This document shows, piece by piece, positions 1,841 to 49,700 of a DNA stretch of 64,000 nt. Position 1 is the stretch's first letter. Each line of letters opens with the position of its first letter. The notes under the pieces are model-generated. The model saw nothing but the letters and a program-made list of their open reading frames with translations. It made no database searches and was not told the DNA's origin. Made by a program: the position numbers and the translations under genes. Source of the DNA: Candidatus Staskawiczbacteria bacterium (lineage in GTDB: Bacteria > Patescibacteriota > Minisyncoccia > Minisyncoccales > Staskawiczbacteraceae); the NCBI GenBank assembly GCA_026395295.1, contig JAPLYZ010000012.1, positions 65,299 to 129,298 of the forward strand. Direction: 5' to 3'.

Positions 1841-1869
1841 TTGACATTTATCAAAAATGGCGTCAAAAT
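1841..1869 (+). promoter_or_regulatory. Candidate sigma70-type promoter for the OLD-like gene
   Basis: TTGACA (1841-1846), 17-nt spacer, CAAAAT (1864-1869); AT-rich context so chance match possible. Confidence 0.3.
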
Positions 1870-1900
1870 TGAATAAAAACTATTGGTAATTGTAAGGTTT

Positions 1901-3208
1901 ATGTTTATAAAAAAAATAAAATTTGAAAAGCATCCATTGATTGGAGACAGCAAATCTTTTGTTTTTTCCGTGCCTCATAGAAACAACATCGGTAGCGGGA
2001 TTAATTATATTGTTGGCAAATCAGGGTCTGGGAAAACAAAATTTTTGGAAATGTTTTTCCTTATGCCTATCGACCCAACGAAGCCCGGAAATCCAAGAAT
2101 TGATGATAATCAATACAGTATTAAATTGTTTGATGAGTCTTGTACGGAAATAACATCAAACCCTATAGCACAAGAACCTGCACCAGTCAGAAGGTTTAAA
2201 TTGAAGTATAGTTTCATAGACGGCAGAAAAGAGCCAAAAAAACATTATATGTTTAGTTCGGAAGAGACGTTGTCCAGGGATATAAGCGGCCGACAAACAA
2301 AGAGGAAGGAGTCTGTTGATAGATTTAAAAATAAATATGAAAAAGATAGCCGAAACTCCGGAAAAGGCGAGGCAAGATTTGACTCGATCATGTCAGAGAT
2401 AGGAAGCGTTAGAGAGGACACGGGCGTTGTTATCGTGGAAGAGCCAGAAGCATTTTTGGATCCAATTAATCAGAAAATTTTGTTAAAACGTATCTCTGAA
2501 GTAGCGAAGGAAAAACAGGTTTTTATTACTACCCACTCTCCATACATGGTGGATTGGTCTTATCTATGTAATGGAGCTTCAATTTTTAAGGTTAATAGAC
2601 CACCAGAATCTAGTGAGTCTATTGTTGGTGCATTTTGTAATGCTATGGTCGCGGAACAGATTAATAATCCAATGAAAAGACAGCCACACTTGAAAGGCGT
2701 AGAAACGAAAGATATTTTTTTTGCCGATAAAGTTTTTATCGTGGAGGGACAAGAGGATGTTGGGTTAATTTCAAGATATCTTGCGGATAATAATATGGAT
2801 TACGACTTTGTATTCTTTGGTTATGGCGCCGGTGGTGCCGACAAAATTAAAAATGTTTTAAAATTATGCTCTGATTTAAAAATTCTCAAGGTTGCCGCAC
2901 TTTTCGACAAGGAATCAAAAGATGCGGATAGGGTATTGAGATACACGTTTTGTTTTGAAAAGTATGCCCCAGCGTTTCAGATAGAGGAGTTGGTAGCAGA
3001 GGATATTAGAGATAAGTTCAGAGAAGATGAAAAAGGTAAATTAGAGAGGTATAAGGAAGGCGCTTTTACTGAAGACGGCGATTTGAAGCAAGGTAAGTTG
3101 GGAGATGATTTCAAAACAAAGATTAAAAATATATTAGATTATTTTAAAGGCGATATAAATGATTCTATTAGGGATAATTCAATGTCGGAGAATGAGTCTG
3201 CAGTTTAG
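1901..3208 (+). CDS. OLD-family-like ABC-ATPase fused to a Toprim-type nuclease domain (defence candidate)
   Basis: Walker A GKSGSGKT, Walker B-like VVIVEEPEAFLDP, H-loop FITTHSP, then Toprim-like VFIVEGQEDVGL and AALFDKESKD; first ATG (1901) inside track ORF 1883..3208. Confidence 0.6.
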   Translation: MFIKKIKFEKHPLIGDSKSFVFSVPHRNNIGSGINYIVGKSGSGKTKFLEMFFLMPIDPTKPGNPRIDDNQYSIKLFDESCTEITSNPIAQEPAPVRRFKLKYSFIDGRKEPKKHYMFSSEETLSRDISGRQTKRKESVDRFKNKYEKDSRNSGKGEARFDSIMSEIGSVREDTGVVIVEEPEAFLDPINQKILLKRISEVAKEKQVFITTHSPYMVDWSYLCNGASIFKVNRPPESSESIVGAFCNAMVAEQINNPMKRQPHLKGVETKDIFFADKVFIVEGQEDVGLISRYLADNNMDYDFVFFGYGAGGADKIKNVLKLCSDLKILKVAALFDKESKDADRVLRYTFCFEKYAPAFQIEELVAEDIRDKFREDEKGKLERYKEGAFTEDGDLKQGKLGDDFKTKIKNILDYFKGDINDSIRDNSMSENESAV

Positions 3209-3318: not shown

Positions 3319-3663
3319 ATGGAGAACATGTCAGTATCTAATAAAATAAAATTCGTTGATTTTTGCGCAGGCATTGGCGCTGGACGTCTTGGTCTGGAGA
3401 ATTTAGGCATGGAATGCCGAGGCTTTTCCGAAATCGATAAATTTTCTGAATATACCTACAGAAGGTTTTTCGGAAACGAGGAGAAAAATTTCGGTAATTT
3501 GATGAAGATAAATTCAAAAGACTTGCCGGATTTTGATTTACTGATCGCAGGGTTTCCATGTCAGACTTTTTCTGTTGTCGGCAAAAGGAGAGGAATGGAA
3601 GATAAGAGAGGTCAAATAATCTATGGTTTGATTAAGATTATGAAAGAAAAAAATCTAATATGA
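3319..3663 (+). pseudogene. DNA (cytosine-5) methyltransferase, N-terminal fragment only (motifs I-IV/V)
   Basis: Motif I DFCAGIGAG and motif IV GFPCQTFS present. ORF stops at ...IKIMKEKNLI* just before where ENV (motif VI) should be. 114 aa versus 300-450 aa for full enzymes. Confidence 0.7.
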
Positions 3664-4412
3664 AAAAACTTACATTAAGAGAAAAATCAATACTGGCTGG
3701 ATTATATTTGTCAAAATTTGATACCGAAGGGCTAAAATTTTTAGGATTTGATAACTTTACAGAAGCATTTAATGTCATTGGTCTGGCATTGGGAGTTCAA
3801 CCAGCATCGGTAAAAAATTATAGAGACGAGTTTGACCCTTTATTCCCGAATGAAAGGCAGGGTTGGCACAAAAGAGAAATTAGAAAATATTGCAAAGATA
3901 TTTACGATACTTTTCACACTTTAAATTTATCTAATTTTTCAACGTTGCTTAAGGATATTATTTATAGAGACCACGATTTAGATGTTTTAATGGAGGAAAT
4001 TGAAAAAAGTGAGGGTGAGAAGGTTAGTTCGTTCGCAAAACGACTTATTACGGGACAAGCGGCAGAGCAATATTTCAAGGACAACTTTTTAAGCGTTGAC
4101 TTGTTTAGAGGATATAATTTTGAAGACACAACAAAAATTGGATGTGGCTTTGATTTCAAATTAGTGACGGAGGAAAAAGAAAGATATTTTGGCGTTGAAG
4201 TAAAGGGACTTAACGAAGTGAGTGGCAATATTGCTTTAACCAATAAGGAGCACACCGTCGCCGATTTTTTGAAAGAACGATATTTTATATTTGTAGTAAA
4301 AAACTTTAAGGAAAAACCATTTCATCAAATTTATCAAGACCCGATAAAGAATTTGGATTTTAACAGGATTGAAAATAAAATAACTCAAATAAGTTGGAAT
4401 ACAGCCGTTTAA
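3660..4412 (+). CDS. PD-(D/E)xK nuclease-fold protein (DUF3883-like C-terminal domain), putative restriction-type endonuclease
   Basis: C-terminal core GCGFDFKL...FGVEVKG...LTNKEH fits a D...(E/D)xK nuclease motif; ATG overlaps the stop of the MTase fragment (ATATGA). Confidence 0.5.
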   Translation: MKKLTLREKSILAGLYLSKFDTEGLKFLGFDNFTEAFNVIGLALGVQPASVKNYRDEFDPLFPNERQGWHKREIRKYCKDIYDTFHTLNLSNFSTLLKDIIYRDHDLDVLMEEIEKSEGEKVSSFAKRLITGQAAEQYFKDNFLSVDLFRGYNFEDTTKIGCGFDFKLVTEEKERYFGVEVKGLNEVSGNIALTNKEHTVADFLKERYFIFVVKNFKEKPFHQIYQDPIKNLDFNRIENKITQISWNTAV

Positions 4413-4414
4413 TT

Positions 4415-4621
4415 ATGGAAATTTTTACAAAAAATAAAAAATATTCTTTTAACGATATCGCAGAAATTTGCGATAAAAATGGGCTAACTACGGTAGATTG
4501 TTTAAAAGATGAAAATATGATTAGCGTTGAAGGGTATGAAAATGGTGAGCTTTCTGGCAATTGTATTTCTGAATTTCATCAAATAAAAGAAGATGTTTTT
4601 AAATTAACTTGGCAGGAATAA
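4415..4621 (+). CDS. Hypothetical small protein (possibly 5' part of a frameshifted gene)
   Basis: ATG 2 nt after the upstream stop; its 3' end overlaps the next ORF, which is in another frame. Confidence 0.3.
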   Translation: MEIFTKNKKYSFNDIAEICDKNGLTTVDCLKDENMISVEGYENGELSGNCISEFHQIKEDVFKLTWQE

Positions 4622-4869
4622 AGGTGAGAGGAGAATTTTCGGCAGATTGGGTTTTAGTAATTTTGAAAATCGACGGCAAAAGCACATGGACTTTGAAATC
4701 GATTAACGAAGCAATGAACATTTTTGGTTCGGGAGCCGTTAGGATAACTTCTCAAGGAAGTTTAAAGATTGGAAAAATAGGAATGCAAAGGAAGGGCGGA
4801 GATGGCGGCAGGGAAACCGCGAAAATGTTGCAGTTTAAAATAAATCCGGTAGAACTTTTCGAGGTTTAA
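4609..4869 (+). CDS. Hypothetical protein; possible remnant of an m5C-MTase C-terminal region
   Basis: ORF with uncertain start (TTG 4609, GTG 4624 or ATG 4717). GGRETAKMLQF is reminiscent of m5C-MTase motif IX (RExARLQgF), but no motif X follows. Confidence 0.3.
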   Translation: MAGIKVRGEFSADWVLVILKIDGKSTWTLKSINEAMNIFGSGAVRITSQGSLKIGKIGMQRKGGDGGRETAKMLQFKINPVELFEV

Positions 4870-4871
4870 TT

Positions 4872-5279
4872 ATGACGGATATTTTTTCTAAAAAGAAGAG
4901 AAGCGAAATCATGCGGGCGGTGAAAAGCAAAGATACAAAAATCGAAGTCGCATTTAGGAGGGCACTTTGGAAAAGCGGATTTAGATATAGAAAAAATTCC
5001 TCAAAATATTTTGGAAAACCAGATGTAGTTTTGGAAAAATATAAAATTGTGATTTTTATCGATTCTTGTTTTTGGCACGGTTGTAAAAATCATTGCAGGA
5101 TGCCGATAACGAATAGAAAATACTGGTTGAACAAAATCAAACGGAACAAGGATAGAGACAAGGAGGTGAATAAGTATTATAAAAAGTTAGGTTGGAAACT
5201 TATCAGAATTTGGGAACATAAAGTTAAAAATAGTTTACCGAAAGCCCTAAATAAAATACAAAAATTAATCGATGAATAA
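4872..5279 (+). CDS. vsr: Very-short-patch repair endonuclease Vsr
   Basis: RSEIMRAVKSKDT, KPDVVL, IFIDSCFWHGC, YW.NKI.RN..RD, IRIWEH match the Vsr consensus; 135 aa. Confidence 0.85.
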   Translation: MTDIFSKKKRSEIMRAVKSKDTKIEVAFRRALWKSGFRYRKNSSKYFGKPDVVLEKYKIVIFIDSCFWHGCKNHCRMPITNRKYWLNKIKRNKDRDKEVNKYYKKLGWKLIRIWEHKVKNSLPKALNKIQKLIDE

Positions 5280-6917: not shown

Positions 6918-8537
6918 ATGCCGAAAAAAGTATTGATAGTAATTCCCAACGATTTTCGTGGACCTCCGCGGGAACGTTTCAAAAAGGCCCAATGGCAGGA
7001 CGCTCGGGACTTCGCCGGCAAGGTGGAGTCGCTCGGGTACCAAGCCGTGGTGTTGGAAGAAGATCTCATCGAGCCCAGGGCTACGTATGAGTCTGTCAGC
7101 TCGGCCATTGAAACCCACAAGCCTGTGGCGGTTGTGTCGCGCAGCTACCTTTGGGCAGACCCGCCCATTGGTCACGCAATTCAGCTCGCCACCCCGTCAG
7201 ACGTTTTCCTGGGCAATTCTGCCTATACTGCTCCGGTTGGCGCCAAATTGGGTGAAGCGCCGGGCGAAGTATTCATGTTGCACGACACCTGTGTCGCGCG
7301 CATGACCGGCAGACACCAAGAACGCCTGATTGGTCCGCTGTCGGGCAATGGCGAAGAGCAACTCATGAGTGACCTGACCGAATTCCTGAGTAATGGCAGG
7401 ATTACCTCCAACGTGGACTTTCCCAACTTCAAACTGCCAATCCAGCGGAGCCACACGGCCATGGCTCGGACAATTCTCGCCGGGATGCGTGGTAATGTTA
7501 TGGCAACCACCGGCGGTCACTGCATGGGAATGTTGCCCTGCCACATTAATGTGCCGTATCACTGCGGCCAGAACGGCTGGGGAATGAACATCCCCATAAT
7601 CTCGCCCGACCTCTTTGACTGGAACAAGAGATTCGAGGCAAAGCGAGACCACTACATGATGTTGGGCTTTGCCTATGTGCAATGGCTCATTGCCAAGGGC
7701 GTCAAGTTCCTGTTCCAAAACGACTGGGACGGCAATTCTCTGCCGGCCGATGAACAAGACTACGACCTTGGTGTGGCAGCCAAGCAGATGGGATTTTACG
7801 CCGCAATGCTGGACATTGCGGCCGAGCGGAAAATCAAGATTCTGGGCATTCCTGCCCAGCTTATTATGACCGAGGGCCTGTTTTGCGGCGACCTTATCAA
7901 AGGCGTTGCCATGTCCTCAGAAGGTCCGGAAGGTCGCAAACATCCGCTTTTCTGGATGACCGAGGGCGACATGGACGGCGGGATTTCCCACTTTGTTTTG
8001 AACGCTGTCACCAAGGAAGCCCCGATCTTCTGCGACGTCCGCTGCCCGATTACCGAGTTGGGTCAAGGCGTGTGGATGATGTGCAACTTCGGTGCCGCGG
8101 GAATGGATGGAGCAGGTGGTTGGGATAAGTGCTATTCTGTTCGGCAATACAAAGGCTACTTTGGCGCCGGCGGAGGCACCTTCTCGTTCCTCAACCCGAA
8201 GAAGTCTTATGTGGTTGGTTTGCGCACGGGCGTTGACCAGCAAGGCATTTTTGGCACTGTTGCCATTGGCGAGACCGTGCAGTCTACCGACTACAATCAC
8301 GTTGTGGACGGCAGGTGGCCTCAATATAAGGTCCATCTCTTCGCCCAAGGTGGCAATCGGGAGATCTACCGGAAGATGGTAACAAATCACAAACACTTCG
8401 CGGCCTCTGCCACTCCGTTGGGCGACGCCTGTATTCTCGCCGAGACCGTCAGGCTTGCCGCGGGTGGAAAGCCTGATGACCCGACCGACAAGGCCGACCG
8501 CGTCAGCATTATCTACGACGGTCGCCCGACGAGTTAA
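6918..8537 (+). CDS. L-fucose/L-arabinose isomerase-family protein (sugar isomerase-like)
   Basis: 539 aa. The C-terminal half is patterned like FucI (FCDVR, NFGAAGMDG, YFGAGGGTFSF, RWPQ, TNHKHF). ~58-60% GC versus ~37% in the flanks. Confidence 0.5.
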   Translation: MPKKVLIVIPNDFRGPPRERFKKAQWQDARDFAGKVESLGYQAVVLEEDLIEPRATYESVSSAIETHKPVAVVSRSYLWADPPIGHAIQLATPSDVFLGNSAYTAPVGAKLGEAPGEVFMLHDTCVARMTGRHQERLIGPLSGNGEEQLMSDLTEFLSNGRITSNVDFPNFKLPIQRSHTAMARTILAGMRGNVMATTGGHCMGMLPCHINVPYHCGQNGWGMNIPIISPDLFDWNKRFEAKRDHYMMLGFAYVQWLIAKGVKFLFQNDWDGNSLPADEQDYDLGVAAKQMGFYAAMLDIAAERKIKILGIPAQLIMTEGLFCGDLIKGVAMSSEGPEGRKHPLFWMTEGDMDGGISHFVLNAVTKEAPIFCDVRCPITELGQGVWMMCNFGAAGMDGAGGWDKCYSVRQYKGYFGAGGGTFSFLNPKKSYVVGLRTGVDQQGIFGTVAIGETVQSTDYNHVVDGRWPQYKVHLFAQGGNREIYRKMVTNHKHFAASATPLGDACILAETVRLAAGGKPDDPTDKADRVSIIYDGRPTS

Positions 8538-21560: not shown

Positions 21561-21659
21561 ATGAACTTTGAAGATGATGACGATTTCGAAGACGACGATG
21601 AGGAGGACGAGTCGGATGACCCGGATGGAGATGCAGAAGATGAGGGCTCCGACGATTAA
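21561..21659 (+). CDS. Hyper-acidic 32-aa peptide
   Basis: Read by eye: MNFEDDDDFEDDDEEDESDDPDGDAEDEGSDD*; 23 of 32 residues are D or E. Confidence 0.35.
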   Translation: MNFEDDDDFEDDDEEDESDDPDGDAEDEGSDD

Positions 21660-23461: not shown

Positions 23462-24868
23462 ATGGAAGAATCTGAAAAAGTAAATTTCTCTGATTTTGTT
23501 AAGTGGACTCCCAAACAACGAGAGGCAGATTTGGCAACAAAGAATTACAAATATATTTTATATGGCGGAGCTATGGGAGGAGGCAAGAGTTATTGGTTGC
23601 GCTGGGAGGGAATAAAATTGTTAATGTATTATTGGGGAAAATATAAATTAAGCGGTGTGATGGTTGGTTTATTTTGCGAAGATTATCCGGCATTGAAAGA
23701 TAGGCATTTGAGCAAAGTTAAATTTGAGTTTCCAACTTGGCTTGGCACATATTCAGCGCAAGACCATAATTTTATTTTATCCTCTGATTACGGCGGAGGG
23801 ATATTGGGATTTAGAAACCTTGACGATGTTTCAAAATATCAGTCGTCAGAGTTTGCGGCCGAATTGGTTGATGAGCTTACAAAAAACGATAAAGAGACGT
23901 TTGATTTTTTAAGAACCCGATTAAGGTGGCCCGGAATTGAAGATACAAAGTTTCTTGCCGGAACCAACCCGGGAGGAATCGGACACGTGTGGGTTAAAAA
24001 TATGTGGATTGATAAAAAGTTTGACGACAACGAGCAAGAGAAAGATAAGTTTGCTTTTATACAAGCAAAGGCCGCGGATAATCCGCATATCGCACAGAGT
24101 TATTATAAATCGCTTGAGAGTTTGCCTGAGGGGCTACGCAAGGCTTTTCTTGAGGGAGATTGGGATTTATTCAAAGGGCAGTTTTTTGGTGAATGGAGAC
24201 GCAATATACACGTCTGCAAGCCCTTTCAGATACCGAGCGACTGGAAGAAATTTGTTTGCGGAGATTATGGATTTGCTAAACCTGCGGCAGTTTATTGGAA
24301 CGCAGTCAGTCCGGACGGAGTAATTTATATCTATCGAGAACTTTATTGCATAGAGCATACTTTTTCAGATTTAGCCAAAAAGATTATTGCAATGACTCCC
24401 GAATCAGAAGAACTTAAGTATTGGGTGTTTGATCCGAGCATTTGGTCAAAGAAAGGAGAATCGGAGTTATCCGGAGCTGAAATAATGCAAAGTGTTTATC
24501 GGGAGATAATGAAAAAGTCATTGATGCTTTTGCAGGGAAACAATGACAGGATTAACGGCGCGCGGGTGTTTAGGGAATACTTGAAACCATATTTGCAAGA
24601 GGAAATGATTACGGCCAAGTTGCAGGTGTTTGAGAATTGTATGGAGTTTATAAGAACCGTGCCGGCATTAGTTTATGACGCAACAAAAGTTGAGGATTGC
24701 GACACCGACGGAGAAGATCATTCATATGACAGCGAAAGATATGGTTTAATGTCGGCTCCGACTCCGGCCATTACTTCTGATAAGTTGAAACAAAAATTAT
24801 TTAACGAAAGAATGAGAAGAAATAAAGAACGCAACAAATCAAAGAATAAATTTTTTAGAATGGTATGA
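23462..24868 (+). CDS. terL: Terminase large subunit
   Basis: Walker A ILYGGAMGGGKSYW, Walker B-like AAELVDELT, C-terminal nuclease region with acidic motifs (CGDYGF, DTDGEDHSYD); 468 aa. Confidence 0.9.
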   Translation: MEESEKVNFSDFVKWTPKQREADLATKNYKYILYGGAMGGGKSYWLRWEGIKLLMYYWGKYKLSGVMVGLFCEDYPALKDRHLSKVKFEFPTWLGTYSAQDHNFILSSDYGGGILGFRNLDDVSKYQSSEFAAELVDELTKNDKETFDFLRTRLRWPGIEDTKFLAGTNPGGIGHVWVKNMWIDKKFDDNEQEKDKFAFIQAKAADNPHIAQSYYKSLESLPEGLRKAFLEGDWDLFKGQFFGEWRRNIHVCKPFQIPSDWKKFVCGDYGFAKPAAVYWNAVSPDGVIYIYRELYCIEHTFSDLAKKIIAMTPESEELKYWVFDPSIWSKKGESELSGAEIMQSVYREIMKKSLMLLQGNNDRINGARVFREYLKPYLQEEMITAKLQVFENCMEFIRTVPALVYDATKVEDCDTDGEDHSYDSERYGLMSAPTPAITSDKLKQKLFNERMRRNKERNKSKNKFFRMV

Positions 24869-33144: not shown

Positions 33145-34563
33145 ATGCCAAAACCAATAAAGTTAATAGTCAAAACTATCGAAGGTCTTTTTAGCCATAA
33201 AACCTATATTGTTTCTACGGCACTGGCTGGCGTGGGAACTTTAACGGTAAAAGATATTGGCGGTTTTGCTATAAATCAAATTCTTTTAATTGGAGAATTG
33301 GGAGCGGAAAACTCGGAGATTATAAAAACTCACGCATCCACAGCTCCCACGGGGTCAACAGTAACACTGGCCGCAAACTTGGTTTATCCTCATCCAATTG
33401 ATACTCCGGTTACTGTGTTAATTTACGATCAGTTTGAAATCTCCCACTCGGCAACATCTGACGGGACCAAAACAACTTTAACCACGACTATTGGAAGTGG
33501 AATTGTTGCATTGCCGGCAGACGAAGTCCAGTTGAGGTATGACGACTCCCAATTCACTTCCGGATATTATTTTATAAGGTATAAAAACTCTATTCTAAGC
33601 ACGTTTTCAGCTTATTACGGCCCGATTCCTTATGTCGGGTATGCAGATAACACGGTTGGAAAAGTTATCGCAAAGGCAATGAAGAGGTGTCATATGGACG
33701 ACTACACGGACTATATTGATAACGAGTTCTGCCTTGATGAAATAAACGAATGTCTGCGATTTATTTCCGGTAAATTGAAGAAATGGGCGAAACTTCAAAA
33801 CTTTGATTATGTTTTAGGGCAGACCTCCCGGGGAGTTTACAAATATGCCCTGCCTGATGATATTGCAGAAAACGAAAACAACAAATCTATTTTTAATATT
33901 CATATTGGCAAGGACAAACCTTTGAAATTTAAGACGATAGGGGAATGGAATGAGAATGTATTGAGGGGAGTCAAGAGATCCGAGGTAAGAACACAGGCAG
34001 TTGCCGGACAAACAACATTGGAAATAAACAACTCATACGACTTCGCAGATACCTCTACAGTAAATATTTATGTGGCAGGTGAGATTTACACCATTTCATA
34101 CACTGGAGTCACTCGTAGTGCCACCGCAGGAGTTTTAACGGGCATACCAGCAAGCGGAGACGGTGCAATAACCGTCACAATCCCGGTTGATACCAATGTT
34201 TGGCAGGACGAGAATGAAACAAAGCCAAGATTCTATACAATTTTTGGCGGAGATCTATACATTGAACTTCCGCAAGATGTTTATTGTAATCAAAACATTT
34301 ATTTAGACTACGAAACAAAGCCGGATACGGTGAGTTCGGACGAAGATGCTTTAGACACATTCAGGTTCGATGCTGTCTTGCATTGGCTCATTTGGGTTAT
34401 AAACGCGCAACAGAAAAATAAAGGGAAAAGAGATATGACTGACGCTGATTATACGCAGTTTTTGCAAATTTTGTCGGATTATATCCGGAATGAATCATTG
34501 GCTCACGGGAGAAAAAATAAACCAAAAATGAACGGAATAACATTTAGAAGTTCAAGAAAATAA
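33145..34563 (+). CDS. Phage structural protein (neck/tail module)
   Basis: 472-aa ORF in the late operon. Confidence 0.5.
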   Translation: MPKPIKLIVKTIEGLFSHKTYIVSTALAGVGTLTVKDIGGFAINQILLIGELGAENSEIIKTHASTAPTGSTVTLAANLVYPHPIDTPVTVLIYDQFEISHSATSDGTKTTLTTTIGSGIVALPADEVQLRYDDSQFTSGYYFIRYKNSILSTFSAYYGPIPYVGYADNTVGKVIAKAMKRCHMDDYTDYIDNEFCLDEINECLRFISGKLKKWAKLQNFDYVLGQTSRGVYKYALPDDIAENENNKSIFNIHIGKDKPLKFKTIGEWNENVLRGVKRSEVRTQAVAGQTTLEINNSYDFADTSTVNIYVAGEIYTISYTGVTRSATAGVLTGIPASGDGAITVTIPVDTNVWQDENETKPRFYTIFGGDLYIELPQDVYCNQNIYLDYETKPDTVSSDEDALDTFRFDAVLHWLIWVINAQQKNKGKRDMTDADYTQFLQILSDYIRNESLAHGRKNKPKMNGITFRSSRK

Positions 34564-40757: not shown

Positions 40758-43700
40758 ATGTCATTATTTGATGATTATAAGAACAATCAAGGACTGGCGG
40801 TACCAGTTGAAACACCAACTCTGGTGGCAAAAACAGAGAACCCGTTTCAAAAAGCGTGGGATTTTGTAACTCAAAAAAAATTAGCACAGATTCCCGCACC
40901 AAAATCAACAGGGACTCTCTTTGACCAGTATCAAGCAGAAAAGAATGCTGTACCGATTGAAACTACACCCGGTAAGACGCCAATGTTGCAGGATTATTTC
41001 AATGCCAACAATATTGAACAAGTTGGCTGGGTTGATTTGGAGAGTAAGGGATTGATGACTCCGGACTTAGAAAAGTTAAAGAAGGCCGGATTTGCTCCTC
41101 CAGTTTCGGAAACTCCTGTAACCAAACCAACACCAGCACCTGTTTATAAAGGATTGACAACTGATCAGTCGCAGAAATTAAACGAAAATATAGACCTTGC
41201 AAAAAACCCTCCAAAAATAGACACTAGTCTTAAAATATCTGCTCCGGCAATAGGTGAGTGGGTTGATACTCCGTCTATGAGCTGGACACCGGAAGAAACA
41301 AAAAAAGCATTGGATAAAGCCTTTGTGCATCCCGACACGGGAAGTCCACGAGACCTGCAAATGAGACAGATAGCTTACGACACGATGAAGGCAAAGATAG
41401 ACCCTGTTTCTTCTTTATTTTTTGATAATTTTCTCCCGACAAAGGTTATTTTTGCATTAGACAGAGACGGAGCTTTGGTAAATGAAGCAAGGCAGAAAAT
41501 TAACGATGAGTTTTCAAACGCCCATCCTTTCCTTTCTATATTGCCGGTGGCAGTTGCTCAACTCGCCAACCTTGCTCTTATAGGAAAGTCAGGCGGGGGA
41601 TTTGGTTTGGCCGAAAAAACAACTGCAACAGCAGGCAGACTATCAAACTGGATGCCGAATGTAGTGAGGATGATCGGTTTGGGAGCTGAAAGCGGTAGCA
41701 TTTTTGGTATTGTATCAGGTATTTCAGAGGCATTAAATCAAGCCGAACAACAGAATTTTCAACCGAAGAAATTATTAACCGAAACATTAAAGGGAGTTGG
41801 CACAGGTTCAACATTGGGAATTGCCGGAGGTGCGCCTCAACTATGGCAGAGAGTTTTGGGAAGCGGTGGAACATTGGTTTCTTTGTCGGCTTTGCAAGGA
41901 TATATGCAGGACGGAAAAATAGATGCCAAAGACATTGCCAACATTACCATAAACGGCATATTGGGAGCAGGTTTTGAATTGATTGGAGGCAGGGCAAAAA
42001 CAAATATATTCTCAACAAAAGAACAAATAAGATTAGGGAGAGATGTAACCACAGCAAAGTTAATGGAAAACCCTGCCGGAACGGCACCCAAGACGTGGAC
42101 AGAGGCACAAGGCGAGTTGGTGGCGCTGGAACAGTTGCCAAAAATGATTTACGACTTGGGCCGGGAGGAAACGATTAAAGGAATGATTGCAAAGCACCCT
42201 GATATGACAGTTCAGCAAGCCAACAAAATGTATGACGATATAACCGCTCTGCCGCGCGCATTGGCTACCGGATACGGAGCAAAGATGGCTCCTTATTACC
42301 AGCAAATTCCAAAGGACTTTTACGGTGCAGACGTTCAAATCCAAAAAGATTATTTCACTACAGTAAGAAAGGGAGTAATGGAAGATGGTTTGACAATCCC
42401 TCAATCCATTGATGTTGCTAACCAAACTTTTACTCCCAAGATATTTTATTCACATCCGGAAGCGACAACGCCGGTGGACATTCACGCTGAAAATCAGGCA
42501 ACACAGGCAGAGGCAAATAAAATGTTGCAGGCAAAAACCGGCACTCCAATAGAGTTGACGGGTTGGAATACAAGCGTGGGAGGCAAAGACAGCGGGTTTC
42601 GAAGTCCGGACAGGTATGAATCGCAGGCATACTCGGCCAGCAAGATGCAGTTTTCCAACAAGGGAGAAGTCAATGTAAATAAAACAACGGACAAACTTAA
42701 CAATCCTTATGTCGCAAACGACCAGACAGAGGTTTTAAAGTTTTTGGGAAACACTGATTTGGTTAAGAGAACGGCAGAGGAACTTAAAAACACCAGTTCA
42801 CTTTCTCCAAATAAACCAATCGTTGTGGAAGCCGACAATTATATCCGCACTGAATTATTAAAACAAGGTTATGACGGAGTAATTTATAAAAACAACGGGA
42901 GACGACCGGAGTATCAGGTTTTCAATGTTAAAAAGCAGTTGGGTGTGGGAGAAACCAAAGCATTGATTGCTTCCGGAGACCAACAGGCAATTTCAGACGA
43001 GGTAAATAAGAGACTGGAAGATTTCAGACAGAAAGCTGATTTAATGGCAAGCAATGAGGGAGCCGGAGTGAGGCAATATAGTTCAGACCAGTCAGTTGGA
43101 GAAACCAAGATTTATAATTACTTCAAACTCGACCGGGCAAAGTCGGATATGTTTAAGCAGGCCAAGCAGTTGAAACAATACGCCCACGAATTGCTTTATG
43201 AGAATGATCCGTTGTATAAAGAATTATACGACAAAAAGGTATCATTGGAAGAAAGCAATTTGAACGCCGCAACAGACGAAATAGACGTTCAAAAGATGTT
43301 CGAGGACATCAGCAAAGAGGAAAAAATATTAACCAATAATTTAAACAAATATGAAACTTCCAAAGACACACCAACTTTTGCTCCGTCTGAGGGCGTTAAA
43401 GCAAAAGGCACTGGACAAACTCAACCAGCTCAAGAAAAACAAACCCCAACCAGTGAAGTAAAGTCACAGGTTCAGAAACCACAAGAGGGACAGAAGCTTC
43501 CAACCAGTGAAGTTATTACACCGGAAGCATTGTCGGCCATTGAAAGCAAGGTTACCGGTATTGTTGAAGAAATAAAAAAGGGCAGACCGACACCGGCCGA
43601 GATGTTAGAAAAAACTCCCAGCGATTACTCCGAAATATGGAGTAATGGTTTTGATTATTACAGAGAAAACATCTCAACTCCGGCAGAGAATGAAATAAAA

Positions 43701-46700
43701 ACAGCGAAGAAAGAGTTGGCAACATTGAAAGGAAACAGAACCCCCGAAGTTAAAACAAGGAAAGCAGAGTTAGAAGCAATTATAAGCAAATTGGAAAAGG
43801 CGAAAAACGATGGAGAGAACAGGATGATAGAAGAAACGCAAAAATATAGTTTAGATTTGGCTGACCTTGCAGTTAAACAGGCTCAAGCTCAAGGACTTGA
43901 TTTGGGAGAATACAATAAGGAAAGTGATGTTTCAGAATGGAACTCATTTAAGGACGATTTTATAACTCAAATATCTGAAAGACCTTACATTGAAAGCAAC
44001 TGGAATGACAAAATTTCAACGATTTTGGACGGAATAATTGCTGATTTTAAAGAACAATTTAAAGGTAGAGTATTAACTCCAACTCCCATTGAAGAGTCGG
44101 CAACAGATATTATAAACTCTTTGTTTGGTGAAGAGCCAGCAAAGCCCGTTTCTCCCTCTATAAATAAGGCAAAACAAGCCACCAGTGAGGCGAATATAGA
44201 GGAGTTGGTAAATACATCAACTCCCGTAGAAATCCCTGTTTTTGAGGAGTCTGGCGCGGTTTATCAAAAGAACGAAAAGAACATTAAAACCGCCAAAGAA
44301 GCGGCAACTGATTTAATCAGAGGATATGTGGAAAGGGGAGATACAATGCAAAGTTTGTCGGAGGGACAAATGGGAAAATACGGAAGCGATTATCAGGCAT
44401 CAGTTGGCGGTTATTTGAATGGCAAGAATGTTGGCAATAAAAAAATAATTGTATTTTCAGTCAACGGAAAGGAGGTTAACGAAACATTTTCATTGAAAAC
44501 AATCTTTGACGAAATAAAGAAAGGCCAACCTGCTCAAAAGAAAACTCAACCTACTCAAGAATTATTCTCCGGATTAAAAACAATTCCAAAAGACACAGTT
44601 TTATTTCACGGAACATCGGGAGAAAATGCAAAGAATATAAAACAGGACGGAGTTTATCAGACTGACGATGTTTATGCTTCTTATGGCAGAGGATTTTATT
44701 TAACAGACGACAAAGCAGTCGCGCAGGATTATGCAGACGAATTGGATAATGGGCAAGTGCTTGAATTTTCAGCAAAGAAAGATTTAAAACTTTTAACTCC
44801 GACAAAAACAGAAAGAGAAGACATCGTTGACCTTACCGGAGAATCGCAGGATGAAATGATACAGCAGTTGTTGGGAGATAATTATGACGGATTTTATCTT
44901 CCGGATATTGGAATTGGCGACGGCTCGCCGCAAGTTGTTTTATATAATAAAACCGGCTTGAATTTTGAACGCAACGACATCAATGATTTGATTTCTTTGA
45001 CACAAAATCTTGATAACGGTATAATTAAATCGTATGGACAACCAAACGAACAATCAAATGACGTTCTTGGGAGTTCACCTGTCGCAGGAACACTTCCCGA
45101 AGCTTTACCAGTGGGCGAAAGACAACCCAGCGACACTGGCGGAGCAGTTGCAGAGCATAGCGGACAAGTGGCACAACGGGGATTGCGTGTCGGCGGCGCA
45201 AGCGCTCGAATCGGATCTCAAGTAAGCAAGACAGAGCAGTTTGCAATAAATAATCAAATTGAAAGTTTAGTTGCAGAAAAGGGCGACAATCCTGACGCTT
45301 ACAGCGAAGAACAAAAAAATCTACTCTCCCAATATTCCGGTTCAGGAGGGCTTGAAGAAGCCGGGGCCAACAACAGAGGTTTATTGGATGAATACTTTAC
45401 CCCACAGAAAGTTGTATCTTTTATTTGGAGTAAATTAAAAGACAGGTTGCCAATTCTCGGCGACTATACAATAGTTGAACCTTCTGTTGGAACGGGAAAT
45501 TTCATTGATGAAGCTCCGGAGGGTACAAACATCGAAGCGTTTGAGATAAATAAAACATCGGCAACAATCGCAAAGGTTCTATATCCCAATGCCGGTGTAG
45601 AGAACGCACCATTTGAAAGTTTATTTATTGACGACAGGGGAAATAAAAAGACGGTCAAGCCGTTTGCTCGTTTGGTTATAGGAAATCCGCCATACGGAGA
45701 ACACAGAGGCATTTATAAAGGGCTTGGCGAAGAACCGCGCATTAATCGCTACGAAGATTATTTTATAAAGCGTGGTTTGGATATTACGCAGGACAAAGGA
45801 TTTGCGGCAATGGTTGTGCCATCGGGATTTTTAAGGACAGCCAGCGATTATGCAAAAAATGAAATTGCAAAACTCGGATATTTGGACTCTGCTTACAGGT
45901 TGCCGAATAATGTTTTTGACAACACCGATATTGGAACGGACATTGTAATTTTACGCAAAGAAGCAGTAACGCCCGAATTTGCATACTCTCTCGCCAACAG
46001 AACACAAACACTTTCAGACGACAATTATTTTAAAGAACATCCCGAAAACATCTTGGGTGTAGAGAAAGAAAGAAAAGGCAGGTTTGGAATGGAGAAATAT
46101 GTGGAGGGGAGCCTTGACTTCACTCCGGCAGAGGAAACCCAGCTCAAAAACGTCGCAAAGAGCAATTCTCCGCAGGGTTCTCTGTTCGATCAGAAAGAAA
46201 TTGTTAAAGAAATTGAAAATGAAATAGACAAGGGAGCAATCAGCAATGAAAAAGAGTTTGTAAAGAATTGGAGCAAGGACGTAAATAAACTGGAATTGTC
46301 GACCCAACCGAAAGTAAATAAGGGAGGCATAACAATTTCTTCTCCAAAGAAAAGCGAAACGCGTTTGGATTTATCAGAATACTATTCTGATATGTCGGAC
46401 GCAGAATTAAGAACCTACACGGAAATAAAACCAACAGGAGAGGGCAACGAAGCGTTGCTCAATGGGGAATTAAGCCCGGAAGATGTAATCAATTACCTCA
46501 ACCTTGAAAATGGCAAATGGTTTAACAACCTTAATTATTTCACTGGCGATATTTATGAGCGATTAGACCAACTCGAAGTAAATAAATCCAAGATGTCGCA
46601 AGGTCAGTATAAAAAGCAGTATGACGGATTGATTAAAGTCCTGCCGGAAAAATACAATGTTGACAGAATAAACATTTCTCCGAACACTCCTTTTGCGGAT

Positions 46701-49700
46701 ATGACTTTAAAGTATGACGGGAAAGATCAGACATTAAAACAATCATTCAAAAACTTTCTATCAACGCTCCCGCGCGATACTTTTGCCGACACTTCGAGAT
46801 ATGAGATTAACGAATATGTGGACGAGCAGTCAGTCAGAGGAAATGACAAGGTCAGAAACCAGACCGTCAGAGTTCAGAGAAGAGAAATTGGCAATCGATT
46901 ATTCTCAAGATTTTTAAGGGAGGCATTAACTCCGGAACAAACAAAGGCAGTTGAGGACAGGTACAACAGGTCTTTCAATAGTTATGTCAGACCGGATTAT
47001 AGGCAGGTTCCGCTTTTGGGAAAAATACACGGAACATTCAAAGGAAATCCTTTGACGATTAAAGACTACCAGTTGCAGGGTATTGGATTTTTGGTGAACA
47101 AAGGATTGGGTTTGATAGCTCACGATGTAGGACTGGGAAAAACAATGCAGTCTATAATTGCCATAAACGAAATGTTAAAACGCGGTTGGGCCAAGAAACC
47201 TTTGATTGTTGTTCCGTCCGGCAATGTTTATACCCAATGGATTAAAGAGGTGCAAGAAATTATACCCGGCATTGAAATCAATGGATTAACCAATTTGGGA
47301 GGCGCATTTGCCGGCGACCTTTCAACACTGGAAATCAAACCCGGCACAATTTCTATAATCACTTACGAGGGATTTAAGAAACTGGGATTTAAACAGGAAA
47401 CCTATAACGACCTTACCTCTGAATTACAAGACACAATAGAAGCTCCCACAGGCCTTACAACCGCACGAGCGAAACAAGCCGAGCAAGCTAAGGTGCAAGA
47501 GACCATAGGCAAAGGAATCAAGGGAACACTCGGGGCAAAGACCTTTGAGGATTTGGGCTTTGACTTAATGATGATTGACGAGGTGCAGAACGCAAACCAT
47601 ATCATTAAGGGAGCCAAGTTGCAGGAAGCCGGCAAAGCCAGTGAGTTCAGGGGTTTGAATATCAGACCGTCAGAATTGGGAATTAAAGCGTGGCTTGCTT
47701 CGCAATATATTTTGAAAAATAACAACAACAGAAATGTCTTTTTGGCATCGGCAACTCCTTTCACAAATAATCCAATGGAGTATTATTCGGTTTTATCTTT
47801 GTTGGCCCGGGAGAGAATGAAGAAGTCCGGATTAAAGAACGTCAACGAGTTTATGAATACCTTTATGGACATCTCGTTTGATTTTGAAATTACAGCGGAC
47901 GGGAAATACAAAGAGAGAAATAATATAAAGGGATTTAAAAATTATCAGCAATTCCAAAAAATACTCACAGAGTTTATTGATTTTAGGGACGGAGAGGAGG
48001 TTGGCATACAGAGACCGAACAGATTGTCTTTGCAGACAACCTTGAAAGCAACCAAAAACCAAGTGGACTTAATGACTTCCGCGCAGGAATTGTTTAACGA
48101 CAAGAATAAAAACAAAGGCGGGGCATTGAAAGGCGTGGGAGAAATGAGAGCGATTACATTCAGCCCTTATGCCTCTTCGTATTATAAAGGTGCTCGCCCA
48201 ACATACGAGAGTTTTGTAAATAACAGCCCAAAGGTTAAAGCCGTTGTAGAAATGGTGATACAGAACCATTCCGACAACAAAGACGCGAACCAAGTCATTT
48301 ATTCTCCAATCGGCGTGGAATATCTGCCGATGATTAAAGATTACCTTGTTCAGAAAGGCGGTTTTAAGGCAGACCAAGTCGGTATTATAACCGGATCGGT
48401 TAAGGGAGACGAAAGAGTGGTTATCCAAGACCGATTTAACGAGGGCAAGGTAAAGGTTCTTATAGGCTCTGATGCAATTCAGGAGGGAGTTAATCTGCAA
48501 CGCAAGTCCACTGATTTATATATTATGGCATTGCCGTGGAACTTCACTGAATTAAAGCAGGTAACGGGCAGGATTTGGAGGCAGGGCAACGAATGGAAAA
48601 ATATCAGGGTTCACAATGTCTTTATAGAAAACAGCGTTGACGTTTTCCAGTCGCAGAAATTGGAAACGAAACAGAACCGCTACGAAAACTCCTTGAAATT
48701 CAAAGGGGATTATCTTGATGTAGGAGACATCGACTTTGACGAATTGAAAATGGATTTAATCAGCAGTCCGGTAATGAGAGTTGCCATAGAAAAATCTATG
48801 GAACAGAGGACAAGAGAAAGAACATTAAACGAGGCAAAATCCAATTTGGGATTTTATTCGAGAAAAGCCGACAAACTTTTAAACGCTCAAGAGGATTTGG
48901 ACAGTGCAAGACAAAATGTCGTTCAATATACAGAATGGGCAAAAGGAGAAAAAGACGAATACTGGTCAAAGAGAATTGCAGAGGCCGAATCCGCCTATGC
49001 CAAAAAACAAAAAGACTACGAAGCCGTTAAAAAAGATGTTGAGGATAAAGGACTGATTGATTTAAACCAGCTCAAGAGTTTAGAAAATAATGTCGCAAAC
49101 GGACAGAAGAGTTTGGACGCATTAAATAAAGATTTCAAAACCAAAGAAGATGCGGCAGTCAAGCAGGAAACAGCAAGGGTTCAGGAAATTACAACCACCG
49201 GTAATGATTATAAACAGATTAGGGGTAATTTGGCAGAGCAAAATAAAACATTCTTTATAAAGAACGAAGCCCCGGCCAATGTTAAGAGAAGTCCGGCTGG
49301 TTTGGCTTCTGCCGGTGGCAGTAAAATAGGGAACTTCGAGCAGATAACTTCTCCGGACGAGGCAGACAAATTGAAAATCTATGACGAGGTTAAGGCGTTG
49401 ATTCAAAAATACGCTCAATCTATCGGTGAAAGTTATCTTCCGCGTGGAGCCGCAGGCGTGTTATACCAGTCAGGCAACATCAGAGTAACGGGAATGAATG
49501 CTTTGTCTGTGGCAACCCACGAAATAACACACTTTTTAGATAAGGCGTTTAAGATTTCAGATCAGATTATGGGAGTTCAGGGAGTGAGCAGAAGCGGCAG
49601 ACCGGTGTATGAAAAGACCACAGCAAAATTAAGAAAGGAAATGACGGATTTATACAATAAGTATTATCCGACAGCCAAAAAATCTCACAAATTAAGCAAG

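Follow-up and report, generated by a model that had tools for sequence, protein, structure and literature searches.

The 64,000-nt stretch of Candidatus Staskawiczbacteria contig JAPLYZ010000012.1 analysed here (the window) carries near its 5′ end an intact open reading frame (ORF) for a 435-aa protein (the query), which combines an N-terminal ABC-type ATPase with a C-terminal OLD-type Toprim domain. This protein is almost certainly an OLD-family ATPase–Toprim enzyme. Structural modelling showed that it shares the fold and the order of domains of a Class 1 OLD, and that it is an OLD from which the helical dimerization domain is missing. From its family membership and genetic context we infer that it would serve as a stand-alone, minimal OLD enzyme, that is, a single-gene, ATP-dependent defence nuclease whose Toprim cutting is gated by ATP; we assign this reading a probability of roughly 0.65.

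Searches with the query returned the Pfam families AAA_15 (42.9 bits, curated cut-off 32.1), AAA_21 (41.5 bits, cut-off 27) and OLD-like_TOPRIM PF20469 (28.3 bits, cut-off 23.2, aa 273–336), all above their curated cut-offs, and no match to DUF4435 at E ≤ 1. An earlier first-pass annotation of this DNA had proposed an ATPase joined to an OLD-type Toprim domain, which is borne out by these results; of the families it had named for a profile search, only DUF4435 gave no hit. A search of PDB sequences with the single query sequence retrieved the Class 1 OLD of Thermus scotoductus (Ts OLD, 6P74) with E = 1.4e-4. Using a profile built from the query and 88 homologs (A1), the E-values were 3e-29 for 6P74, 2e-15 for GajA and 1.1e-16 for AriA, the last being confined to the ATPase. 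Comparison of A1 with 32 classical Class-1-like OLDs by hhalign gave a probability of 100% (E = 1.4e-43) over aa 1–346. An AlphaFold2 model of the query was built on A1 (predicted local distance difference test, pLDDT, 88.7; predicted template modelling score, pTM, 0.89). When this model was compared with the PDB by Foldseek, 6P74 came first (E = 1.8e-11), followed by several GajA entries and the retron-Eco8 OLD; the heads of SMC, cohesin, Rad50 and RecN ranked below the OLD structures. The structural comparison suggested by the first-pass annotation therefore placed 6P74, GajA and the retron-Eco8 OLD at the top, and, with the Toprim hit above threshold, the best match was an OLD and not a housekeeping ABC or RecF-like ATPase. 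PADLOC models matched the query in part, with GajA as the best (3.9e-14), then AriA (2.6e-13) and Old (1.5e-12), and also PtuA and MAD3. Most of the PADLOC and NCBIfam matches fell in the Walker B/D-loop/H-loop region, and overall they spanned aa ~125–345.

The motifs of the gene were assigned with the help of its relatives, which form a clade of compact OLDs. All conservation values refer to alignments of 89–113 clade sequences that share only 25–50% identity. In window coordinates the features are:

1901–3208, + strand: compact OLD-family ATPase–Toprim gene, 435 aa, intact ORF from the first ATG at 1901, stop codon included
2015–2038, + strand: Walker A/P-loop GKSGSGKT, aa 39–46, G44 and K45 invariant
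2039–2356, + strand: shortened segment from Walker A to the signature, aa 47–152, strands and loops only in the model
2357–2371, + strand: degenerate ABC signature-like SGKGE, aa 153–157, invariant G156 aligned to GLGIQ of Ts OLD
2426–2464, + strand: Walker B VVIVEEPE and D-loop AFLDP, E181 being the catalytic Glu
2531–2542, + strand: H-loop THSP (T211-H212-S213-P214), H212 invariant
2717–2920, + strand: OLD-type Toprim core, aa 273–340, from the PF20469 match and the alignment to 6P74
2996–3016, + strand: clade-specific AEDIRDK, aa 366–372, D368 and K372 invariant, R370 in 96%
3146–3205, + strand: acidic/polar C-terminal tail of ~20 aa, GDINDSIRDNSMSENESAV, without counterpart in relatives and modelled with low confidence

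All five peptides quoted in the first-pass annotation were found at verified coordinates. Invariant positions in the clade alignment were G44, K45, G156, P182, E183, H212, E282, G283, D286, D336, D368 and K372, and the whole T211-H212-S213-P214 motif did not vary either. The Walker B Glu E181 is 99% conserved, and the Walker B Asp position is taken by Glu (E180) in the subfamily of the query. At the Q-loop-like position 90% of the clade have Arg, as is common to many Class 1 proteins (PMC7049728). The D-loop of Ts OLD contains H283, which is functionally required and characteristic of OLDs (PMC7049728). This His is absent from the query, which has D187, the canonical ABC Asp, at this position; across the clade His accounts for 81% and Asp for 9%. 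The conservation of the ATPase and Toprim positions at an overall identity of 25–50% argues for purifying selection on both active sites.

Within the Toprim core, EGQED is encoded at 2744–2758 (+) and D-K-E at 2906–2914 (+), and a glycine motif, FGYGAGG, is also present. Profile alignment to 6P74 placed E282 on Ts E377, D286 on Ts D381 and D336 on Ts D431. In Ts OLD, metal A is bound by E377, D431 and D433 and metal B by D381, S478 and E480, with R487 as the catalytic basic residue; the counterparts in P2 Old are E402, D541, E543 and K550 (PMC7049728). Downstream of the core the clade shares the consensus L-(P)-(T/A)-x-D-I-R-D-K. By analogy, AEDIRDK may be the counterpart of S478-x-E480 plus R487 in Ts OLD, where the sequence reads VVQP-S478-L-E480...R487, and of D541-x-E543 plus K550 in P2 Old. 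In that case (T/A)366-x-D368 would supply the remaining metal-B ligands, and K372 or R370 would be the catalytic basic residue.

The small size of the protein could be traced to a single site. Ts OLD carries a four-helix dimerization domain inserted between β8 and β9 of the ATPase (PMC7049728). The distance from the Walker A Lys to the signature Gly is 111 residues in the query (K45–G156), 156 in the 461-aa relative P0011 (K47–G203) and 216 in Ts OLD (K34–G250). Elsewhere the spacing is nearly the same in the query and Ts OLD, with 25 and 26 residues, respectively, from the signature Gly to the Walker B Glu, 101 in both from the Walker B Glu to the Toprim Glu, and 54 in both from the Toprim Glu to the first Asp of the DxD motif. 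Thus, the whole deficit of 90 residues compared with Ts OLD (525 aa) sits at the slot of the dimerization domain. According to DSSP, the stretch between aa 51 and 153 of the query model is free of helices. The model of P0011 (pLDDT 91.8), whose best PDB match was also 6P74 (E = 8.7e-17), has three short helices at 127–171 in the same slot, and alignment with the ~460-aa relatives showed that the subfamily of the query deletes exactly this block. As far as the models go, this shows that the query is an OLD without the helical dimerization domain, and the missing insertion explains why the first-pass annotation found it to be minimal and shorter than the classical OLD and GajA proteins (GajA has 578 aa).

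To place the protein among its relatives, sequence collections were searched at scale. A word-indexed search of 5.8 billion clusters yielded 183 relatives. About a dozen are close (41–51% identity, 389–471 aa), one of them from a metagenome-assembled genome of Candidatus Nomurabacteria; the remaining ones form a broad set of mostly ~450–480 aa. When 1.84 billion representatives at 50% identity were searched by HMMER with A1, 553 proteins were found at E ≤ 1e-30, so that the clade comprises at least 553 clusters at this identity, typically of 455–480 aa; among the best 150 of these matches, nearly all were 450–500 aa long and aligned end to end. The query and about a dozen relatives, at 389–435 aa, lie below even this compact size. 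A minority of the clade (P0183, P0191, P0198, P0211 and P0230) has an N-terminal extension of ~190 aa without a Pfam domain, and P0056 ends in a NUDIX domain. As a clue to function, these fusions were uninformative.

Scoring of the ORFs of 80 GTDB species-representative loci with A1 separated two groups. Compact proteins reached 320–561 bits, whereas classical OLDs of 550–650 aa in the same loci scored 117 bits at most and matched only to profile position ~400. The classical set (A4) matched Ts OLD over its whole length (E = 4.3e-57), and in hhalign the alignment of A1 with A4 began at the N-terminus and ended shortly after the DxD motif. The split in scores, together with this partial alignment, indicates that the compact proteins are a discrete clade. 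Judged from the sequences, they are clearly homologous to Class-1-type OLDs, but their C-terminal quarter is different.

The clade is weakly annotated. Its PF20469 scores lie between 21.9 and 30.1 bits, around the cut-off of 23.2, and therefore the Toprim nuclease is routinely missed in NCBI and RefSeq names. Relatives are labelled 'AAA family ATPase' by NCBI, while some carry the name 'predicted ATP-dependent endonuclease of OLD family' in IMG. The RefSeq protein WP_148262661.1, a clade member from the Hoyosella plasmid pAS9A-2 (locus L093, 5980–7401), is named only 'ATP-binding protein'. The most recent OLD phylogeny, by Yang et al. (2025), distinguishes Classes 1–4 and the uncharacterized clades U1–U11 (PMC12796447). 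The clade hallmark VEGQED was absent from Dataset EV1 of that study (169 kb), in which the sequences end at ~400 residues, and a full-text literature search found no paper on compact OLDs or on OLDs embedded in restriction–modification (R-M) loci. This suggests that the compact clade was previously undescribed. Whether it deserves the rank of an OLD class of its own is a tentative matter, to which we give somewhat less than an even chance: such an undescribed class would consist of compact proteins of ~460 aa in at least 553 clusters and would include a reduced subfamily of 389–435 aa, among them the query, without the dimerization domain.

The likeness of the query to Class 1 OLDs goes beyond 6P74 being its best match in both profile and fold. 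Like these enzymes it joins an N-terminal ABC ATPase and a C-terminal OLD-type Toprim domain in one polypeptide and has no conserved partner. It also has Arg at the Q-loop-like position, as many Class 1 proteins do, it is without the C-terminal helical domain of Class 2, and its 101-aa and 54-aa motif spacings are those of Ts OLD. It differs from Class 1 in its length (435 aa compared with 525–586 aa), in having no four-helix dimerization insert, in the D-loop (D187 compared with Ts H283) and in the second Asp of DxD, which is replaced by Glu and is variable in the clade. Furthermore, S/D-x-E...R/K gives way to (T/A)-x-D-I-R-D-K at other distances, and no alignment of the C-termini was obtained.

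With GajA, the Class 2 nuclease of Gabija, the query shares the ATPase–Toprim architecture; GajA entries were the next fold matches after 6P74 and GajA the best PADLOC model. However, no UvrD/GajB-like helicase lies beside the query or recurs across 43 related loci, and the protein is ~140 aa shorter, having neither the C-terminal helical domain nor the dimerization/tetramerization insert. Gabija was rejected on the grounds of the missing GajB and the missing helical domain. PARIS (Class 4) resembles the query in the Walker B/D-loop/H-loop region of AriA and in its restriction contexts, but the match to AriA is confined to aa ~170–217, and ATPase and Toprim are fused in the query and split between the genes of AriA and AriB in PARIS. 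Since both domains are in one ORF and DUF4435 gave no match, an assignment to PARIS, AbiL or an AriB-type Toprim was rejected as well. A retron-linked (Class 3) protein was discarded because no reverse transcriptase was found among the neighbours in the window and no Rfam match in its 64 kb; the NCBIfam model of the retron Eco8 effector scored 22.5 bits against a cut-off of 250. Finally, PrrC and RloC also combine an ABC-type ATPase with a C-terminal nuclease, and one lineage of the clade occupies an hsdS–hsdR slot (see below). The query has a Toprim domain, however, which is unrelated to the anticodon nuclease domain of PrrC, and R-M embedding is found in a minority of the clade loci and not in the window.

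The start of the gene was examined in the six-frame ORF listing, which gives 1883–3208 (+), or 441 aa if counted from a TTG. We placed the start at ATG 1901 because three lines of evidence agree: the N-termini of the closest homologs begin MFIK..., an AAGG Shine–Dalgarno-like sequence lies 5 nt upstream of this ATG, and on 19 metagenome contigs the identical 435-aa protein was called independently with the same start. The length of 435 aa in the first-pass annotation is exactly what this ATG yields. Its end coordinate, 3208, also agrees, but its start, 1841, lies 60 nt upstream of the coding sequence, at a −35-like TTGACA. Two flanking signals were noted upstream:

1765–1785, + strand: hairpin GCCCGC-TCTCA-GCGGG followed by TTTTT, read directly, just 3′ of the map stop codon
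1841–1869, + strand: promoter-like TTGACA-17 nt-CAAAAT, 10 of 12 consensus matches

The terminator scan reported the same hairpin on the opposite strand. It is likely to be a terminator that separates the upstream secY–adk–map unit from the OLD-like gene. Promoter-like sites were no more frequent in this region than in shuffled sequences, so the evidence for the site at 1841–1869 is weak.

The genes preceding the locus are the C-terminus of secY (36–308), adk (310–999) and map (996–1742). The first-pass description of a position next to the ribosomal operon is right in that secY–adk–map lies directly upstream, but the window contains no ribosomal protein gene. Downstream, remnants of a decayed R-M system of the HinP1I type follow:

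3319–3663: N-terminal fragment of a C5 cytosine methyltransferase (Dcm), 114 aa, downstream of the OLD-like gene
3660–4412: NOV_C/DUF3883 protein, 250 aa, its start overlapping the stop of the Dcm fragment (ATGA)
4394–4621: 75-aa ORF, no Pfam match
4609–4869: R.HinP1I-type endonuclease, C-terminal 81 residues only
4872–5279: Vsr mismatch endonuclease, intact, now an orphan

These are followed, 3′ of vsr, by tpiA and an RNase H-like gene. A gap of 110 bp, carrying a promoter-like site, separates the OLD-like gene from the Dcm fragment. The same downstream layout was found on the independent metagenome contigs L090 and L092, so that it is no assembly artefact. The R-M debris beside the gene indicates that it sits in a small defence islet, of which the R-M part has decayed. 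Given that the downstream genes are a Dcm fragment, NOV_C, an R.HinP1I remnant and Vsr, the first-pass observation that no GajB- or AriB-like partner is adjacent stands. The NOV_C protein was considered as a partner and rejected, as the 25 Pfam families most common in the neighbourhoods of the relatives do not include NOV_C. A search for the boundaries of the insert between map and tpiA revealed no meaningful direct or inverted repeats around it, and the 64-kb window was free of tRNA genes and of Rfam matches at the gathering threshold.

A 539-aa ORF at 6918–8537 without a Pfam match has 55–58% G+C amid 32–40% G+C, which suggests a foreign origin. A prophage-like block at ~23400–55900 contains a large terminase subunit (23462–24868), an SU10-adaptor-like protein (33145–34563) and a polyvalent protein of 3903 aa (40758–52469) with an Eco57I-type methylase, an SNF2 helicase and LPD38. 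Large polyvalent proteins of this architecture are known from the conflict systems of phages and plasmids (PMC5512222). The hyper-acidic peptide at 21561–21659 to which the first-pass annotation had drawn attention does exist, in the phage-like block (MNFEDDDDFEDDDEEDESDDPDGDAEDEGSDD, Asp/Glu at 22 of 32 positions); the tie to the OLD-like gene raised there is entirely speculative.

For the genetic context of the clade, ORFs were called in 43 related loci and 115 neighbours (±2 genes) were scanned against Pfam and PADLOC. No conserved partner gene emerged from the 43 loci, the commonest family, ResIII, accounting for only 4 of the 115 neighbours. HSDR_N was found three times, integrase, Mrr_cat_2, Fic and Methylase_S twice each, and AlwI, EcoO109I, type ISP and RhuM once each; DEAD (3/115) and Helicase_C (2/115) overlapped with matches to type I HsdR. 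The PADLOC scan gave the same picture. The 'single-gene' character postulated in the first-pass annotation is thus supported by these 43 clade loci. OLD classes are defined by genetic context (PMC10568477), and by this definition the lack of an obligate partner makes the clade Class-1-like.

The close homologs have unrelated neighbours, namely a LAGLIDADG-like gene and a histidine phosphatase, a GTPase and an unknown protein, or a Mur ligase. In locus L005 (2224–3609), and likewise in L006, a 461-aa member is placed within a type I R-M system, overlapping hsdS by 4 nt and followed after 10 nt by a split hsdR; a NucS_C/DUF8426 protein lies upstream. In EcoprrI, the slot between hsdS and hsdR is occupied by prrC. 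Another member is found beside DUF2130, a serine recombinase and hsdR, yet another near an HSDR_N_2-kinase and an RHS protein, and the member on the Hoyosella plasmid adjoins an integrase and an HTH–RES toxin pair. Thus, the clade tends to lie among restriction and mobile-element genes. Its distribution is patchy and includes Patescibacteria, Legionella/Coxiellaceae, Photobacterium, Clostridia, Bacilli, Actinomycetota, Caldilineaceae and Methanothrix.

How might such an enzyme work? To hydrolyse ATP, the heads of ABC ATPases must pair head to head with two nucleotides sandwiched between them (PMC7049728). Because the query has no dimerization domain, and so no constitutive dimer interface, its protomers would meet only through ATP-sandwiched engagement of the heads, as in RecF, Rad50 and the nucleotide-binding domains of transporters, and the protein would most likely cycle between a monomer and an ATP-bound dimer. 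Binding or hydrolysis of ATP may then gate or position the two Toprim sites. Nucleic acid would be cleaved with the help of metal ions, site A being formed by E282 and D336 and site B by D286 and (A/T)366-x-D368; as general acid or charge stabilizer, K372 or R370 might serve. The substrate could be DNA, which would be nicked, digested exonucleolytically or degraded as by Ts OLD, Vc OLD and GajA, or it could be the stem of tRNA, as for P2 Old (PMC12445682) and AriB, which cleaves tRNA (PMC12409363). The role would be that of a single-gene nuclease against phages or mobile elements, as demonstrated for P2 Old and Vc OLD, encoded in the small islet between map and tpiA. Single-gene Class 1 OLDs are known to defend against phage (PMC12392090, PMC7049728), and defence by Vc OLD of Vibrio cholerae needs both its ATPase and its nuclease residues (PMC12392090).

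Several observations weigh against a defence nuclease of this kind. At the position of Ts D433 the query has Glu (E338), and the clade has Asp in 40%, Gly in 34% and Asn in 20%; as the second Asp of DxD is variable, the geometry of metal A may differ from that of characterized OLDs. The C-terminal catalytic elements could be aligned to no solved OLD, since both HMMER and hhalign stop just after DxD. None of the PADLOC, NCBIfam and P2-Old models matched over the full length or at a curated or family-level cut-off. The PADLOC check put forward in the first-pass annotation thus delivered GajA, AriA and Old, though only as partial matches, and filing the protein under a named defence system was rejected for this reason. 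The clade was found in 0 of 50,697 phage records and in only 1 of 72,556 plasmids, and therefore seems less obviously mobile than P2 Old. Furthermore, functions other than defence exist in the family: the archaeal OLD Cran1 acts in the cell cycle (PMC12796447), and the phenotype of E. coli YbjD is independent of its Toprim domain (PMC13261556). For all members of the clade, nuclease and defence activity are predicted from sequence.

These points leave room for three other explanations, all of which we consider improbable. By analogy with PrrC and PARIS, the protein could be a restriction-linked guard that is kept latent by an R-M system, or monitors it, and is triggered by phage anti-restriction to cut tRNA or DNA, leading to abortive infection. 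The prrC-like position of the L005/L006 member, with its 4-nt overlap to hsdS and 10-nt gap to hsdR, fits this idea, as do other members beside HsdR, HsdS or type ISP genes, the R-M remnant that the window gene abuts, and the cleavage of tRNA by the OLD-type Toprim nucleases P2 Old and AriB (PMC12445682, PMC12409363). It is unlikely, however, in view of the type I R-M genes found within ±2 genes in only ~3 of the 43 loci. The closest homologs lie among housekeeping genes with no R-M nearby, and the R-M system in the window is of type II, decayed, and 110 bp away with its own promoter-like site. About equally unlikely is a housekeeping factor in DNA transactions (repair, replication or a chromatin nickase) that resembles Cran1, or RecF with a nuclease, and has been kept by a reduced genome. 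Core genes do flank the locus, with secY–adk–map upstream and tpiA downstream, the identical protein occurs on 19 metagenome contigs, and there is the precedent of an OLD clade with a role in the cell cycle (PMC12796447). Yet only about a dozen close relatives (41–51% identity) turned up among 5.8 billion clusters, and the distribution is patchy across phyla and both prokaryotic domains. Moreover, the contexts of the relatives are unrelated, unlike those of the vertically inherited, syntenic Cran1 clade, and the immediate neighbours are debris of a restriction system.

The protein could also be a catalytically altered or decaying relic, in which the ATPase is kept and the Toprim domain only binds nucleic acid, or the whole gene may be in the process of being lost. 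This we regard as slightly less probable still. It would account for the variable second Asp of DxD, the loss of the dimerization domain and the fragmentation of the neighbouring Dcm and R.HinP1I genes, and it would agree with a YbjD phenotype that does not need the Toprim domain (PMC13261556). On the other hand, the ORF of 435 codons is intact and identical in several independent samples, apart from this Asp the catalytic positions of ATPase and Toprim do not vary among 113 sequences of 25–50% identity, and the model is confidently folded. A minimal, single-gene OLD defence nuclease remains the reading that we prefer.

OLD nucleases underlie defence by P2 Old, Gabija, retron Eco8 and PARIS. 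To our knowledge, it is an inserted dimerization domain that joins the subunits in all OLDs solved so far. If the compact proteins are indeed a class of their own, their most reduced subfamily, without the dimerization domain, would represent the smallest OLD able to function, monomeric until its ATP-bound heads engage, and with the C-terminal half-site of the nuclease re-invented as (T/A)xDIRDK. OLD-type immunity would then be able to do without the constitutive scaffold that makes dimers or tetramers of Ts OLD and GajA. A bolder idea, if true, would give some members, for example that lodged between hsdS and hsdR, the role of abortive-infection nucleases that guard restriction. The gain is incremental and not conceptual, since in domain content, fold and probable chemistry the protein follows a known family. 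In view of the 11 uncharacterized clades already recognized (PMC12796447), the changes in the nuclease motifs and the lack of a dimerization domain are noteworthy rather than astonishing. With 390–460 aa and a confidently predicted structure, the compact clade may serve as a minimal model for the contribution that the ATPase head makes on its own. Present defence-finder models overlook this compact OLD branch, and so do the names given by NCBI. For the host, which appears to be a Patescibacteria-like organism with a reduced genome, the gene would add a defence-type function to a sparse known immune repertoire.

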